A stretch of 49,169 nucleotides of DNA from IMG/VR virus record IMGVR_UViG_2740892489_000001. One strand, written 5' to 3'. Positions 1,533 to 47,930 of the stretch are shown here, piece by piece. The first letter of the stretch is position 1. Every line of letters starts with the position of its first letter. The position numbers and the translations under genes were made by a program. This DNA comes from a virus. Lineage: Duplodnaviria; Heunggongvirae; Uroviricota; Caudoviricetes. Below the pieces are notes generated by a model, which was not told where the DNA came from, searched no databases, and saw nothing but the letters and a program-made list of their open reading frames with translations.

Positions 1533-1754
1533 TTAATTTGAATACAATGCAATTCTCGAGGACTGAAGTTTCTCGCAATTAAAATTTATCAGTTTTACTT
1601 TCTGCTCTCTGGAAACGCCTGCTTCTTTTTTACCTGAGAGCATTTTTTCGCATTCTGATTTCGTTAGTTTAGATTTTGAATATCTTGTCCAGTTAGTAGG
1701 AGTGCCACCTTCCTTTTCAATAGTGGCGGTAATTTTATACATGAACACCTCCAT
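1533..1754 (-). CDS. YdaC-like small prophage protein
   Basis: Internal Met MEVFMYKITATIEKEGG of the 93-aa ORF; position between xis and ralR as in Rac. Confidence 0.45.
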   Translation of the reverse strand: MEVFMYKITATIEKEGGTPTNWTRYSKSKLTKSECEKMLSGKKEAGVSREQKVKLINFNCEKLQSSRIALYSN

Positions 1755-2795: not shown

Positions 2796-5389
2796 TTGCA
2801 TATTCCTTAGCCCAGCGGGGCAGTGATAATGTCTTAATAGCTGGCCATTCATCGGTATTCAGGCAGTCAGACAGGGTTCGCAGATTGCGGTGATATTCCT
2901 GTTGACCTGCCAGTTTTGCTTCTTCGCCCATCATGAAAATTTCAACCGGATAACGTCCGCATTCAATAGTTGTGCTGGCAACCAGAAAAACGAAAGTTGG
3001 CTGCACTCCAAACTGTGCTTCATAACCGTCACTGTAGAATGCATCCTGAACGTGATAGCGGTAGTCGTAATAAGCGGTTTTGAATCGTTGAATATCCGCC
3101 GTAGTTTTCACGTCCATGATCCAGTGAAATTCAGGGATAATTTTGTCCGGACGGCACCGACACAAAATTCCTGTTTCAGGATCTTCCCAGTAAATTGATG
3201 ATTCAGCGTGTCCGGCGCTTTCAACAAGCCATTGCCCCAGCGGCAAAGCCATAACGCTTTGATACATGAGTTCAATTTTCCGGCCTTCTTCCGCAGTGAT
3301 AACCGTTTTTCCTGTGCTTGCGCATTCCATCAGAAACGCTTTCTCTTCTTCTTTTCCGGCGTTTGTACGGCGGTTAAATTCAGGTGCTACGATAAAGCGG
3401 TTACTGAATTCTTCCGGTTCAAGTACCCGGCAGTGGAAAGCAGTTCCTAAATCGAGCGTTTTTGTCTTTGTGGTGTCCACGGGGGCATTTTTACGCCACA
3501 AATATAGTGCCGGAGTATCAGCAATGTCATCGAGCTGAGACTTACTGATACCGGGACCCGCGTGGTAATTCTCATTCGAAATTCCGTAATAAATACCTGG
3601 CTCTATGTCTTCTACGATTACGGGATCTGCGACTTCGCCAGTTTCATCACTGCAATCGCGATGCGGATCGCTGCCAGCATTCTCATTGTGCGGATGTTCA
3701 GCGCCTTCCATTTCCTCCGGATCATTTTCCTTAGCTTCAACCTGACTCTCTTCATCGAATGTTTCCTGGTATGTTGCGTCGCCCATCACCGCACCACAGT
3801 CAGGGCAGTTATCCCCGCCAGTCTGGCCGCAGGCATTGCAGGCTATTTCCGGTTCCTGTTGCACTACTGGCTCAGGTTGATTCATATCTGGGCTGGTTTT
3901 TTCCGTTTCTGGCTGGTTCTGGTACACACAATCGCGAGTCTGGATCCCCTTTACCCATTTCGGATCGTTCGGGTCGCTAATTCCGTCAACAAATTCACCA
4001 CGTGATGCAGCAAGCAATTTATCGGCATCGACAGGATTTTTTGATGGAATGTTTTTCCGGGCTTCATGGAGTTCTGCCCGCAGTTCCTGATATTTCGCAT
4101 CAACAGAATTTACCTGTGACTGAGCATCCAGCGGCTGCGTGTCCTGATGATGTTCAGTTGCGTCCGGTTCCATTGTTTCAGCCTCTCCCTGTTCAACTGC
4201 CGTTGTTCCAGATGGTTGCGGTTTTTCTTCATCATCCTGTTTTCCTTCTTCTGTTACTCGCTGCGGCATCGGGGCAGAGGAGCGACCGCAGGCAATATCC
4301 ACGATTTCCGGATCAGGGTTGGCATGATCGGTTTCAGTCAGTACTTTGTTCAGATATTCAGTGACGTGCGCGGGGATGACCTCGATCCCAATTGGTGCTT
4401 CTTTTACGGACGCAACCACGATGGCGCGGGAATAATCCAGCCCGCCAGGCATGGTGATGAATTTGTCGCGGAAAACAGAAAAGGGCGGTTTATTTTCAGC
4501 GATAATTTCCTCAATGCGTTTAGCGTGTGCCGGATGAAGGTTATAGATGTCCAGATCCATTGAACGGGCCAGTACGCCAGTGGCTACGTCGCGCGCCAGT
4601 GACGTCAGATCGTGTACGAAACCTTCGCCGCGATCGGTGAGGTTTCCGCCGCCAGCATTAGCACCGGAAGCCGTGCGAGTGATGTGTGAAACACGATTAC
4701 CCTTCATCCACTCTTTTGTCAGCAGTCCTCGATCGGTGTAGTCAGCGTTCAGGTATGCTTCGAAAAAAGCAGTTATCAGTCCCAGGTTTGAATTACCAGG
4801 ATTAGGGAAAACTTTGTCAGTGTCACGAACCAGTTTGTGGAGTTCGCGAATTTCCAGCGGGTCGAGCAGGCTGGTTTTGTGGGAAACAGCCAGGGCAGTA
4901 ACAGCCGGTAGTTCTTCAGCCCGAGCAATGTGTAATGCCTGGAGTCCGTCGCGTGAAACGTGCGTTACCGGTTTTTCGCTGCCGTGTTGAGCAAGCCAAC
5001 GAATGGGCAGTTCCTGGCCAGAAATTGGGAGTAGCATATTCTCCTCAATCTCAGTCATGTCTTCGCCGTTGACGTTGGTATTGCCTTGATAGTGAGCGTT
5101 GTCTGGTGCTGCTCCCGGTTTTAGTTCCCATGTCATGGAGTCTTTGCTGAGTTGATAGCGTTCACTCCAGGTAAAATCGATCTCACCTTCAGCGGGCAGG
5201 TCATTAACGACAGGAAAATTCGTGGCAACAGCTTTAAAATAGCTGCTCAGTTTTTTACCTGACTTAACGATCAGGTAGTCCAGAGTGGCACAGGTCGATT
5301 CAAAATCGTTGCTTGCCCACAGGACGACGTCAGGTTCACCGGATGATTTTTTTCGCTTTCCGTAACAGGAAGAGTGGTTTTGTGCTCAT
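2788..5389 (-). CDS. recE: RecE exonuclease VIII; N-terminus displaced by frameshift at T7 run 5347-5353
   Basis: 782-aa ORF from [11 protein letters not shown] ending [13 protein letters not shown]; upstream 17-codon [14 protein letters not shown] fragment joins in frame if the run is one base shorter. Confidence 0.9.
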
Positions 5390-6233: not shown

Positions 6234-6675
6234 AATTATCTCCATTTTTACAAATGAACTTTGTTGATGCGGTGCCTGGTGCCTCCAGGTGACTGCAACC
6301 AGTTAACAATTACAGTCGGCTTTCCCACCCAAACCAATAAGGACTAACATGACTTTTAACTGTGCCACGTGCGCTTAGCCGCATTCACCGCATCACAAAA
6401 TTCACTTTAAAAAGGGCGGACATCAGCCGAACTTCAAGAAAAAAAACTGATGCCGCCAGGACTACACACAGCAATGTCGTTATTTACAACCGGAGGCGCA
6501 CTCCCACCATTTAAATTTAACAGACAAGACCGACTCTTTATGGATATCGGAAATGCGCCTTCGTGTTGTGCCCGGTTTTATTTCACCACCTCCGGGCTTC
6601 GGTGGTCTCGGCTATACCCCTACAGCGAGAGCTTGTGTTAACATTTCAATACCCTTACAGTTGAGAGTTATTGAT

Positions 6676-14999: not shown

Positions 15000-15236
15000 A
15001 TCGCGGATAGATCTTTGTAGAGTCAGTGATTGGCGCAGGTAGGTGGTAACAGCAGACAAATAGCTGCGGATACTTGAGGCTATCTGCCTCGGGCATGAAC
15101 ATCAAAGGCAGATAGAGAAAAGCCCCAGTTAACATTACGCATCCGGCAAGACGCTTAACATTAATCTGAGGCCAATTTCATGCTTTGCACATGTAGGTTA
15201 GCCTCTTACGTGCCGAAAGGCAAGGAGAAGCAGGCT
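15000..15236. promoter_or_regulatory. hok leader / putative sok antisense region
   Basis: Structured GC-rich leader typical of hok mRNAs upstream of the hok ATG. Confidence 0.4.
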
Positions 15237-15392
15237 ATGAAGCAGCAAAAGGCGATGTTAGTCGCCCTGATCGTCATCTGTTTAACCGTTATAGTGACGG
15301 TACTGGTAACGAGGAAAGACCTCTGCGAGGTACGAATCCGAACCGACCAGACGGAGGTCGCTGTCTTCACAGCTTACGAACTTGGGGAGTAA
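15237..15392 (+). CDS. hok: Hok/Gef-family type I toxin
   Basis: MKQQKAMLVALIVICLTVIVTVLVTRKDLCEVRIRTDQTEVAVFTAYELGE; in-frame upstream extension from 15180 (mok-like). Confidence 0.85.
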   Translation: MKQQKAMLVALIVICLTVIVTVLVTRKDLCEVRIRTDQTEVAVFTAYELGE

Positions 15393-16455: not shown

Positions 16456-16745
16456 TGGTGGATTTACGTAAAGCGGCGCGGGGGCAGATGTGCACCGTCA
16501 GAATTCCTGGCTACTGCAATCACGATCCGGAAACGTCTGTGCTGGCGCATTACCGACTGGCGGGAACGTGCGGAACAGCGACAAAACCACACAATATGCA
16601 GGCGGCGATTGCCTGTAGCTCATGCCACGATCTAATCGACGGGCGGGTAAAAACCATCGATTACACCAAAGAAGAATTACGCCTGATGCATGCAGAAGGT
16701 GTTCTTCGCACACAAGAAATCTGGAGAAAGGAGGGATATTTATGA
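16455..16745 (+). CDS. YbcO-like Cys-rich protein (DUF1364 by recollection)
   Basis: CTVRIPGYCNHDPETSVLAHYRLAG...CSSCHD pattern, 96 aa. Confidence 0.5.
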   Translation: MVDLRKAARGQMCTVRIPGYCNHDPETSVLAHYRLAGTCGTATKPHNMQAAIACSSCHDLIDGRVKTIDYTKEELRLMHAEGVLRTQEIWRKEGYL

Positions 16746-16924
16746 TTTACCCAACGAATACAGGAAAAAGCGGAGAACACCTTCGTCTCACCACGCTGGA
16801 AAGTGTCTGGATTCAGGGAAAACTACGTATGTGGGGGCGCTGGTCGTATATTGGCGGCGGTAAGACGGGGAATATGTTCAACCAGTTGTTGGCCTCTAAA
16901 AAGCTGACAAAAAACGGCAATTAA
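16742..16924 (+). CDS. Hypothetical 60-aa protein
   Basis: GGAGGG Shine-Dalgarno before ATG 16742; overlaps upstream stop. Confidence 0.4.
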   Translation: MIYPTNTGKSGEHLRLTTLESVWIQGKLRMWGRWSYIGGGKTGNMFNQLLASKKLTKNGN

Positions 16925-16940
16925 CGAGGCGCTCCGGAGG

Positions 16941-17286
16941 ATGAAAAAAAGCAGGTCTGAACAAGTCTGAACTTGAGGCTTTTTTGCGGGATATGATTAA
17001 CGGTAAGCAAAAGAGCTGGCTGGCGCATTGTACTGATGCAGAGGCGTTATGTATTGATCGGGTCATAAGTGAGGTGCTGGCAGAGCATCCAGGATTGATT
17101 AGCGTCCTTCGGCAACGGTATGAGGGGCGGGGGATGACCAAACGCAAAATGGCTGAATTGCTAAATGATGCACACCCAGAGTGGTGTTTTAGCACATGCG
17201 AAAAGCGAATTGCTAATTGGTTGGCCGTTGCTGAGTATGCGCTATACATTCCCATGCGAGAATCATTCGCTCAAAAAACGGCTTGA
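16941..17286 (+). CDS. Hypothetical protein at the Q position upstream of the late region; frame broken at A7 run 16944-16950
   Basis: ATG 16941 with GGAGG Shine-Dalgarno gives 9 codons then stop; one fewer A yields a continuous 115-aa frame MKKAGLNKSELEAFLRDMINGK... Confidence 0.4.
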
Positions 17287-17532
17287 TTTTTTACGCATAA
17301 ACTGCTTCAATTTTGCTACGCTTCGCAAAGCTGTATCGCGAGGCGAATCAAGCGCAATTAAACTTTAATAGAACCCGCCATCGAGCGGGTTTTGTTGTTT
17401 CTGTGGTGTGATATCAGAAACGATATTTAATCATCGCCTTCAAAATAAATTTATTTATATGTTGTTGTATATATTTTAAGTGAAAGTGAATTATTCACAT
17501 AAAATAAAAACATATAAATAAATTTACATAAC

Positions 17533-17576
17533 TTGACGCAAACTGTTGTTGCGATTGGAATATTAAATCGTATCAT
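17533..17576 (+). promoter_or_regulatory. Candidate promoter upstream of tRNA genes
   Basis: TTGACG at 17533 after a very AT-rich upstream stretch (17440-17530); -10 element ambiguous. Confidence 0.3.
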
Positions 17577-17639
17577 CGAAAACGGTTCTGAGGGGGAACT
17601 CTTCTTTGAACGGTGATATCGCTCCCCTGAAGAACCAAT

Positions 17640-17715
<76 letters not shown>

Positions 17716-17718
17716 TAT

Positions 17719-17793
<75 letters not shown>

Positions 17794-18159
17794 GCATTTG
17801 AAACAAGCCTTATTGTATTACGGCACTGGCGTATTTTTTTTATTACGTGGGAGCAGGTTGTTTTGAAAAAGCATTCTGTTCTCTGGCTATGATTTGAGGC
17901 CGGGTGTAGCCTCAGTGCTGATTTTTTACGGCAGCAGAATGGTGCATTATCGGTGGAGATTTTGTATTTCCTGGCAGGGTCGGTGATGCATCATTCTGGT
18001 GTTGTAAATCGCACCACAGAGGCGCTCCTCAGTGCGAGGGTGGTTTAAAGAGTCGGTTTAGCGGGAAACCACAGTATCCATACAGCACGGAATACTTCGG
18101 GAGGCACCCGACGCCTCGGTTTAATAACAATTAAAAAATTCATCCCTTGCATTGACCAA

Positions 18160-18184
18160 CCGCCATATCTGGCGGTTTTTTTTT
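18160..18184 (+). terminator. Rho-independent terminator
   Basis: CCGCCA-TATC-TGGCGG followed by T9. Confidence 0.7.
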
Positions 18185-18574
18185 ATTCCTTTCTCAGGAC
18201 AAAAAAAAGACACGAGCATCCAGGAATACTCGTGGGACAACGTCCTTTAGATAGCAATTTGCGAGAGGGTGAAAAGTAGCGCGGTCGTCGGATTAAGACC
18301 GCGGGACAAAGTCCATGAAGAATAATAAGTATTGGCCCCCTTCTGGGGACATGTTCATACTACTAAGCTTCAGAAGTGGTTTAAATCATCAAATTAACCT
18401 TAATTTTCGATAAGTCTTATTTCATTTCTTTGCGCCACATCTGGCGCGCATCAAATAACGCCACGCAAAGGGCATCTGCGGATGCCGGTGCTTTTGACGG
18501 GGTGTTTTTTACGGGCCGCTGGTGGCCATTTTTTGTTTCCATTACACAGCGCCCGCATCTGCGAGGTGGGGGTT

Positions 18575-18790
18575 ATGAAATCCATGGATAAGTTAACAAC
18601 GGGTGTCGCCTATGGCACCTCCGCAAGCAGTGCTGGCTACTGGTTTTTACAGTTGCTCGATAGAGTAACTCCGTCACAGTGGGCTGCAATCGGTGTGCTG
18701 GGTAGTCTGGTTTTTGGCCTGCTGACGTACCTGACAAACCTTTATTTCAAGATTAAAGAAGATAAGCGCAAGGCTGCGAGAGGTGAATAA
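18575..18790 (+). CDS. Phage-21-type pinholin (S21-like), dual start MKSM
   Basis: [71 protein letters not shown], 71 aa. Confidence 0.85.
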
Positions 18791-19287
18791 TGCCTCCATC
18801 ATTACGAAAAGCCGTTGCTGCTGCTATTGGTGGCGGAGCAATTGCTATAGCATCAGTGTTAATCACTGGCTCAAGTGGTAACGATGGTCTGGAGGGTGTC
18901 AGCTACATACCATACAAAGATATTGTTGGTGTATGGACTGTATGTCACGGGCATACAGGAAAAGACATCATGCTCGGTAAAACGTATACCAAAGCAGAAT
19001 GCAAAGCACTCTTGAATAAAGACCTTGCCACTGTCGCCAGACAAATTAACCCGTACATCAAAGTCGATATACCGGAAACAACGCGCGGCGCTCTTTACTC
19101 ATTCGTTTACAACGTGGGTGCTGGCAATTTCAGAACATCGACGCTTCTTCGCAAAATAAACCAGGGCGATATCAAAGGCGCATGTGATCAGCTACGTCGC
19201 TGGACATATGCTGGCGGTAAGCAATGGAAAGGTCTCATGACTCGTCGTGAGATTGAGCGTGAAATCTGTTTGTGGGGTCAGCAATGA
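18790..19287 (+). CDS. Endolysin (lysozyme) with N-terminal signal-anchor-release segment
   Basis: Hydrophobic Gly/Ala-rich N-terminus then lysozyme-like region; start overlaps holin stop (TAATG). Confidence 0.85.
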
Positions 19288-47353: not shown

Positions 47354-47930
47354 TGGCATTCAGAATGAGTGAACAACCACGGACCATAAAAATTTATAAT
47401 CTGCTGGCCGGAACTAATGAATTTATTGGTGAAGGTGACGCATATATTCCGCCTCATACAGGTCTGCCAGCAAACAGTACCGATATTGCACCACCAGATA
47501 TTCCTGCTGGCTTTGTGGCTGTTTTCAACAGTGATGAGGCATCGTGGCATCTCGTTGAAGACCATCGGGGTAAAACGGTTTATGACGTAGCGTCAGGGGA
47601 CGAGTTATTTATTTCTGAACTCGGTCCGTTACCGGAAAATGTTACCTGGTTATCGCCGGAAGGGGAGTTTCAGAAGTGGAACGGCACAGCCTGGGTGAAG
47701 GATACGGAAGCAGAAAAAACTGTTCCGGATCCGGGAGGCGGAAGAAACAAAAAAACAACCTGATGCAGGTAGCCAGTGAGCATATTGCGCCGCTTCAGGA
47801 TGCTGCAGATCTGGAAATTGCAACGGAGGAAGAAATCTCGTTGCTGGAAGCATGGAAAAAGTATCGGGTATTGCTGAACCGTGTTGATACGTCAACTTCA
47901 CAGGATATTGAATGGCCAGCACTGCCGTAG
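47353..47930 (+). CDS. Tail fibre assembly protein (Tfa-like); frame broken at A6 47714-47719 and A7 47749-47755
   Basis: [37 protein letters not shown]... then C-terminal [21 protein letters not shown]... in ORF 47676..47930. Confidence 0.8.

Follow-up and report, generated by a model that had tools for sequence, protein, structure and literature searches.

What occupies the 780 bp between the tRNA genes and the lysis genes of a Rac-like lambdoid prophage? The window analyzed here, a 49,169-nucleotide stretch of viral DNA (IMG/VR record IMGVR_UViG_2740892489_000001), is such a prophage of Escherichia coli, and its interval 17794–18574 separates tRNA-Gly from an S21/EssD-type holin gene. An initial annotation described this interval as noncoding and hairpin-rich, and offered two readings: a late promoter with a Q-utilization (qut) site and a short terminated leader RNA, or an unannotated small RNA (sRNA). 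The interval contains no complete open reading frame (ORF) of 60 or more amino acids, as stated there, and coding potential is not conserved. The strong terminator placed at 18160–18184 is real, with a stem at 18158–18177 and a T-run at 18176–18184. The two strongest features, a long hairpin (17925–18008) and a multi-helix core (18015–18121), had been overlooked. The sRNA alternative is supported: the terminator closes a structured RNA that belongs by structure to the STnc100/PasD family. The interval is rather probably a lambdoid small-RNA/terminator island between Q/pR′ and the lysis cassette that encodes a plus-strand Hfq-type regulatory RNA followed by insulating terminators; the function in this reading is assigned by analogy with PasD and EcOnc27.

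A permissive Rfam scan matched 17991–18188 to STnc100 (RF02076) over the full length of the model (22.1 bits, E = 0.016). An exact CGGGAGGCACCCG core is common to both, and the match extends as far as the strong terminator. Viral-contig scans for the shared motif returned at least 120 loci per scan, and 184 distinct elements were extracted, a minority of which are chance matches in high-GC genomes contributed by a later genome scan with a 16-nucleotide G+C-rich pattern. Most sampled elements have, 3′ of the motif, a strand that can pair with another one 79–135 nucleotides upstream, and the two covary (GAGGCG/CGCCTC, GAGGTG/CACCTC, GAGACG/CGTCTC, ATGGTG/CACCAT, GTGGTG/CACCAC, GCGGTG/CACCGC, and GTAGTG/CACTAC). 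The family consensus, derived from 61 representatives with the window subtype excluded, consists of helices P1, P2, P3, and P4, in which 12 of 22 pairs change in a compensatory manner. Covariation is family-wide in P1, P2, and P4, the last exemplified outside the window subtype by CCUGG-AGGCA-CCAGG. The comparisons with slid partners and shuffles given below ignore kinship. A covariance model built from the alignment of the 61 non-window-type members, run unfiltered over the two strands of the entire 49-kb window, matched 18015–18121 (31.6 bits, E = 4.4e-6), about the same score as that of the verified PasD2 of enteropathogenic E. coli (EPEC) E2348/69 (27.7 bits). The 40 distinct sequences of the window subtype adopt a five-helix fold with 95.7% of cells paired, compared to 44–54% with slid partners. 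Double changes occur in 13 of its 29 pairs, and none of 500 shuffles reached this level of pairing. These results identify 18015–18121 as a divergent, unannotated member of the STnc100/EcOnc27/PasD family by structure.

The prophage sRNA family itself is known, and the interval is mostly explained by known biology; the new element is a topologically distinct, unannotated subtype. Canonical members form a pseudoknot between the P3 loop and the linker that follows P2. This pairing was tested per sequence because the P3 loops are out of register for a column-wise test, and the longest complementary run averaged 7.2 nucleotides versus 5.3 ± 0.16 with permuted partners. The canonical pseudoknot is formed by many different sequences. 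The linker after P2 has another partner in the window subtype, the stretch immediately 5′ of P3, and the result is the nested helix P2b, which itself covaries.

STnc100 corresponds to the Hfq-bound sRNA EcOnc27 (sRNA103) encoded downstream of stx2B, and strain EDL933 has eleven STnc100 copies, one of which is confirmed by Northern blot. PasD1 and PasD2 are Hfq-dependent sRNAs with many partners in RNA interaction by ligation and sequencing (RIL-seq), and a 2026 preprint describes a structural link between PasD and STnc100. Canonical copies are located downstream of stx1AB or Q and upstream of a nanS-p esterase gene. The published PasD seed, UGUGAG, lies in a linker between core and terminator. 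The window has an A/U-rich linker in the equivalent place (18118–18157), which is proposed by analogy to provide an Hfq A-R-N motif and a seed region. An intrinsic terminator follows the core within 160 nucleotides in 38 of 39 distinct window-type elements.

The long hairpin precedes the core. None of 200 shuffles reached its stability, and 96.7% of its cells are paired in 36 distinct relatives compared to 29–59% with partners slid. Six pairs have changes on both sides, and the many G-U pairs, which would turn into A-C mismatches in a minus-strand transcript, indicate that the hairpin acts in the plus-strand RNA. Positions 17940–18000 have 0–1 variable positions per 20 nucleotides whereas the flanks vary, and in more distant relatives the homologous long hairpin has a larger loop. 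The proposed role of this element is RNase III-type processing or stabilization of the downstream RNA at its 5′ end. Upstream of it, the spacer after tRNA-Gly folds through a helix between GGCACUG (17822–17828) and CAGUGCU (17913–17919) with small hairpins inside, such as CGUA/UACG at 17830–17847. Relatives keep both strands of the long helix, with wobble changes, and show covariation in the small hairpin (CGTA/TACG versus ACACAT/ATGTGT), which gives moderate support from sequence comparison for a conserved structure. Most window-type representatives checked have tRNA-Thr plus tRNA-Gly (or tRNA-Arg) upstream of the RNA module. In one relative a tRNA remnant is fused directly to the long hairpin, and at two loci the RNA module stands directly after pR′-tR′.

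Table 1. Coordinates of features in the interval and elsewhere in the window.
Feature	Position	Strand	Evidence or remark
STnc100/PasD-family core, five helices	18015–18121	+	Rfam, own covariance model, covariation
P1	18019–18024 with 18112–18117	+	core helix
P2	18027–18039	+	core helix
P2b	18040–18046 with 18066–18072	+	nested core helix
P3	18073–18096	+	core helix
P4, loop AGGCA	18097–18111	+	core helix
A/U-rich single-stranded linker AAUAACAAUUAAAAAA...UUGACCA	18118–18157	+	AAU-AAC-AAU repeats, read from sequence
Intrinsic terminator AACCGCCA-TATC-TGGCGGTT, then T-run	18158–18184	+	terminator scan
Structured spacer after tRNA-Gly	17822–17919	+	fold z = -2.5
Long hairpin, ~25 pairs	17925–18008	+	-42.5 kcal/mol, z = -7.9
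Conserved hairpin GCGCCA-CAUC-UGGCGC	18432–18447	+	compensatory variants
Tandem terminator T1	outer stem 18457–18462 with 18501–18506, inner hairpin 18471–18486, T-run 18505–18510	+	scan
Tandem terminator T2	18514–18527 plus T-run, module to 18535	+	scan
Ribosome-binding leader common with S21/EssD-type holins	18558–18575	+	DLP12 comparison
Minus-strand terminator hairpin	18234–18211	-	U-run (U8) 18210–18201; scan; region fold z = -4.3
Weak promoter-like site TTTTCA 18275–18270, TATCTA 18253–18248	18201–18275 unit	-	sequence match
Second terminator-like hairpin CGCGGUC/GACCGCG	18280–18303	-	U-run interrupted in window
Candidate -35 TTGATT	17283–17288	+	behind Q stop codon
Candidate -10 TTCAAT	17306–17311	+	17 nt after TTGATT
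Putative initial transcribed block TACGCT...GAGGCGAA	17317–17347	+	conserved among Q loci
Putative terminator tR′	17366–17397	+	found by terminator scan
DUF1367 and DUF1364 genes	5′ of Q		first in local gene order
DUF1133-type Q antiterminator gene	about 16742–17286		after DUF1364 gene
Promoter-like site 5′ of tRNA genes	17549–17576	+	promoter scan
tRNA-Thr(UGU)	17640–17715	+	ARAGORN, Rfam tRNA
tRNA-Gly(UCC)	17719–17793	+	ARAGORN, Rfam tRNA
780-bp interval	17794–18574		between tRNA-Gly and holin
S21/EssD-type holin	18576–18790	+	then endolysin, spanin, trkG
RalA antitoxin RNA	1558–1736	+	Rfam match above gathering score
sok antitoxin RNA	15068–15242	+	Rfam match above gathering score; Hok/Gef gene adjoins in relatives
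IS009	47696–47896	+	Rfam match above gathering score

The 3′ part of the interval is dominated by terminators. A scan of 17200–18800 found 6 terminator-like sites versus 1.9 ± 1.6 in shuffles. The tandem terminator module (18457–18535) is kept directly before the holin gene in 57 distinct loci that cover two different holin families, often straight after the stop codon of a coding sequence, and it has compensatory changes (GGCGT..GGCGCC, for example). Just upstream, the GCGCCA-CATC-TGGCGC hairpin of the initial annotation exists one base from the position reported there. Its pairing is kept by compensatory changes in relatives (GCGTC/GACGC, GCGCT/AGCGC), and its G-U variants favor the plus strand. 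Four hairpins (18161–18176, 18432–18447, 18471–18486, and 18553–18562) share a central CAT(A/C)TCTG or CATCTGCG in or near the loop and account for the "repeated hairpins" noted earlier. From 18558 onward the window is 94% identical to the upstream region and coding sequence of DLP12 essD. The DLP12 nmpC-essD spacer and IpeX, considered as matches to the interval, have only the last 18 nucleotides before the holin in common with it. The sole longer frame, 18482–18790, is an in-frame upstream extension of the holin ORF, which starts at the MKSM dual-start motif at 18576. The holin frame is open for 94 nucleotides 5′ of this motif (18482–18575), which yields a mechanical 102-amino acid ORF that overlaps the conserved tandem terminators, and translation of the extension is unlikely.

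In the proposed mechanism, the main gene of the island would be a plus-strand structured RNA of up to ~390 nucleotides located downstream of tRNA-Thr and tRNA-Gly and composed of the folded spacer, the 25-pair hairpin, the five-helix core, and the A/U-rich linker before the terminator at 18158–18184. Transcription in the lysogen would start at the tRNA promoter or at a distant TTGAAA, 19 nt, TATGAT site (17863–17893); in relatives of another type, a perfect TATAAT would start transcription inside P1. Cleavage at the long hairpin, probably by RNase III, would shorten the transcript, which would then act like PasD and EcOnc27, with the linker and U-tail binding Hfq and the linker pairing with target mRNAs. 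The tandem terminators would insulate the lysis genes by stopping polymerases from constitutive promoters upstream, so that only Q-modified polymerase from pR′ would reach them. The two minus-strand terminators would belong to one or two short RNAs in antisense orientation, analogous to AgvB and AsxR.

The minus-strand terminator hairpin at 18234–18211 with its U-run to 18201 faces the plus-strand terminator at 18158–18184 in a convergent layout. The 18201–18275 unit is a candidate gene for an RNA of about 40–50 nucleotides. Two relatives have a different sequence at the same position with the same architecture, so the segment from 18186 to ~18290 behaves as an exchangeable gene-sized module. 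In one of them the second hairpin is a clear terminator, with a compensatory CGCGGC/GCCGCG stem and T7 on the minus strand, a weak indication that 18280–18303 may end a minus-strand RNA of ~100 nucleotides that starts near 18373. Both hairpins correspond to inverted repeats in the initial annotation. The repeat given as 18281–18305 is a hairpin with true coordinates of 18280–18303, and the hairpin behind the repeat given as 18225–18248 exists, with those positions being the 3′ half of the 18211–18234 hairpin plus a mini-hairpin. Comparison of 18186–18575 with the nanS-p to holin spacers of E2348/69 gave only chance-level matches, and homology to PasA or PasC was rejected. The block 18186–18425 is missing from several relatives.

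The DNA just 3′ of the Q stop codon was aligned from 41 distinct loci. The order behind Q in the window is TTGATT, 17 nt, TTCAAT, TACGCTTCGCAAAGCTGTATCGCGAGGCGAA, and an intrinsic terminator; the block conserved among loci is TTGATT or TTGCAA, 17 nt, TTCAAT, TAYGCTTCGCAAAGCTGTATCGCGAGGCGAA, and a terminator ~25–35 nucleotides further that differs in sequence between loci. The block is kept behind at least four unrelated Q 3′ ends, even wholly different ones, and the DNA further downstream is mosaic. Because it stays with Q across unrelated 3′ ends, 17283–17397 is probably the pR′/qut/tR′ unit of DUF1133-type and related Q proteins. It is built like pR′ followed by an initial transcribed region (containing a -10-like TACGCT) and tR′, a layout that predicts promoter activity and Q dependence. 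To our knowledge, no qut site has been characterized for a DUF1133-type Q.

The position of this block bears directly on the other reading in the initial annotation, in which the interval would contain pR′, a Q-utilization site, and a short leader terminated at 18184. A strong terminator does stand upstream of the lysis genes, and lambda and Shiga toxin (Stx) phages make terminated leaders, yet 17283–17397 is a far better candidate because it adjoins Q and stays with it across several Q alleles, which places the late promoter, qut, and leader outside 17794–18574. The modules of the interval are linked to tRNA genes rather than Q (they stand behind a methylase gene in phage SerU-LTIIb), a promoter scan found no site within 17794–18574, and the RNA that terminates at 18184 has its homologs among sRNAs encoded 3′ of stx genes, a long way from pR′. 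An interval-borne late promoter is therefore highly improbable, and the suggested tie to late-gene control survives only indirectly, through interval terminators that would be barriers for Q-modified polymerase. Decay into nonfunctional DNA, such as the remnant of a lost moron or a repeat element with leftover or chance hairpins, would fit the mosaic nature of the region, the loss of 18186–18425 in some relatives, and homopolymer lengths that differ between the window and its relatives. Covariance analysis across related prophages, the check proposed in the initial annotation, instead found compensatory and G-U-preserving changes in the core, the long hairpin, the 18432–18447 hairpin, and the terminators, all structures that are conserved under selection. 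The near-invariance of 17940–18000 between variable flanks also contradicts decay, and this explanation is very unlikely. The compensatory changes together with a median of one copy per carrier genome, in a prophage context throughout, argue against a repeat or miniature transposable element, which was rejected. Small proteins are the least credible content of the interval. The frames in question are a 32-amino acid ORF (18315–18413, +) and a 41-amino acid ORF (18417–18542, -), and RefSeq annotates WP_001298832.1 as a hypothetical protein on the minus strand in some genomes. The first is frameshifted in one relative and has mostly nonsynonymous changes in others, the second overlaps the conserved terminators and is altered through indels in relatives, and small-protein coding was rejected on these substitution and frameshift patterns.

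Several observations weigh against an Hfq-type regulatory RNA of the STnc100/PasD family. The RF02076 gathering score of 47 bits is not reached by the window element, nor by two of its relatives, and the linker-to-P3-loop pseudoknot of canonical members is missing from its subtype. Because every locus was fetched with an exact P4 pattern, P4 invariance is an ascertainment artifact and no evidence. Expression and Hfq association are known from canonical members and are predictions for the window subtype. No convincing sigma-70 match was found directly upstream of P1, and a promoter there is unlikely; PasD2 has TTGACT, 17 nt, TAAAAA just before P1, and the 3′ arm of the long hairpin occupies this place in the window. 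The minus-strand promoters are weak matches, so the minus-strand RNAs are candidates only. The core's elaborate, sequence-conserved fold exceeds the needs of a base-pairing sRNA, and the same core lies in kilR and dicB 5′ untranslated regions without a terminator, which makes a cis-acting or protein- or ligand-binding role possible. The corresponding rival explanation is that the core is a cis-acting leader or processing module that would bind a protein, a ligand, or the machinery of transcription or degradation and govern the fate of its own transcript, with the terminated "sRNA" a by-product as in riboswitch leaders. The compact multi-helical fold with conserved AGGCA and GCGG loops, the covarying pseudoknot of canonical members, the untranslated-region copies (kilR in the window, dicB and kilR in K-12), and the canonical copies before nanS-p, with a terminator in between, are consistent with it. 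On the other hand, the seed of PasD is defined and its RIL-seq partners are many and Hfq-dependent, the terminators vary in sequence from member to member and show no general alternative pairing with the core, and no gene directly follows the terminator in the window, where the next plus-strand gene is the holin, ~390 nucleotides away behind more terminators. A cis-acting leader is unlikely. A broader proposal, which we regard as quite unlikely, is that the STnc100/PasD core does not merely form the 5′ portion of base-pairing sRNAs and is a widespread pseudoknotted phage RNA module that recognizes one particular partner, be it a protein, a small ligand, or the machinery of transcription or decay. 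Phages would then use the module in three settings: as a free-standing sRNA, as a kilR/dicB 5′ leader (including that of E. coli K-12), and, in the window variant, joined to a phage tRNA operon by the long hairpin, a potential RNase III site. A plus-strand Hfq-type RNA followed by insulating terminators is the preferred reading of the interval.

A second, stronger family member occurs in the window at 6265–6395 on the minus strand (70 bits with our model; 35.5 bits with Rfam STnc100, below the cut-off). It lies between a DicF/KilS-like sRNA (6414–6470, -; Rfam DicF at 39 bits, below 48) and the start of kilR (6232, -), and no terminator follows it. E. coli K-12 has copies of the same subtype in Qin, in the order dicF-[1649453–1649582]-dicB, and between kilS and kilR in Rac (65.8 and 63.4 bits), and the RefSeq record has no RNA annotated at these positions. 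Some viral contigs contain two or three STnc100-type copies in tandem, as in loci L025 (461, 714, and 967) and L036 (1814, 2067, and 2320) with a period of 253 nucleotides; tandem copies also occur in L009, L014, L024, L046, and L067.

The 17794–18574 region is present in 376 of 5,426 complete E. coli genomes (~7%), chromosomal every time, and is almost never annotated in these carriers. They lack an RNA annotation for this stretch because the element falls below the Rfam STnc100 cut-off. Two deposited phage records match the interval with high coverage, vB_EcoS-683R6 and the LT-IIb toxin phage SerU-LTIIb. The unit of tRNA, structured RNA, and holin is duplicated in SerU-LTIIb (1122–2424 and 3028–4127), and the two copies have diverged, with compensatory P1 changes (GAGGTG/CACCTC versus GAGTCG/CGTCTC). 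The Q gene of the window has an extra A in homopolymer runs at 16909 and 16944 that breaks its frame, compared with the intact 180-amino acid DUF1133 Q of a 99.5% identical relative, and the window is off by one base in further homopolymers near 17834, 17922, 18176, and 18201. Sequencing errors, and not a genuine pseudogene, may account for these differences, including the broken Q frame.

The window-type element and the copies before kilR and dicB would be picked up by a broader family model. The candidate minus-strand units would extend the convergent sRNA pair in the moron site from Stx-type prophages of enterohemorrhagic E. coli (EHEC) and EPEC to Rac-like prophages of commensal and extraintestinal strains, and the element is a family member linked to phage tRNA genes. 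A fold conserved as a pseudoknot in canonical members and with a nested substitute here raises the question of the binding partner of the core. The tandem terminators before two holin types point to a general safeguard, one that would shield the lysis genes from constitutive transcription of morons and sRNAs.

The modules of the interval resemble several known systems. The complexity of the core prompted a comparison with the put-like antiterminator RNA of HK022, a cis-acting structured phage RNA that lies downstream of a promoter; a relationship was rejected, as the HK022 genome has neither a motif match nor a family-model match. Lambda 6S RNA and StxS are short terminated pR′ leaders upstream of the lysis genes that are read through by Q-modified polymerase. 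The RNA described here is also short, terminated, and upstream of the lysis genes; it is unrelated to these leaders in sequence and position, and their equivalent in the window would be 17283–17397. Among sRNAs derived from tRNA operons, of which 3′ETS-leuZ is an example, regulatory RNAs lie 3′ of tRNA genes, end at the operon terminator, and are released by processing. The interval RNA shares this arrangement, assuming cotranscription with the tRNAs, and differs in being phage-encoded, much longer, and more structured. Convergent sRNA pairs with AgvB and AsxR as the antisense partners were described downstream of PR′ in the moron site of EHEC prophages (Tree et al. 2014, PMC4104026). The window has the same kind of very short minus-strand unit, with a terminator facing that of an STnc100-type RNA in a moron site downstream of the probable pR′. 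Neither minus-strand unit matches AgvB or AsxR in sequence or through the Rfam models RF02702 and RF02703 (E up to 5, either strand), and the promoter and 40–50-nucleotide length of the very short unit are predictions. The closest relatives are STnc100 (RF02076, equivalent to EcOnc27 and sRNA103) and PasD1/PasD2 of EPEC, which share with the window element a prophage site downstream of Q and a plus-strand orientation with the late operon. In all of them P1 closes a junction of hairpins, P2 has the form CCYC-loop-GRGG, P3 is variable, P4 carries an AGGCA loop, and a single-stranded linker and an intrinsic terminator follow the core. The canonical GGUGAAUCC motif is replaced by GAGGYGYUCC in the window subtype.

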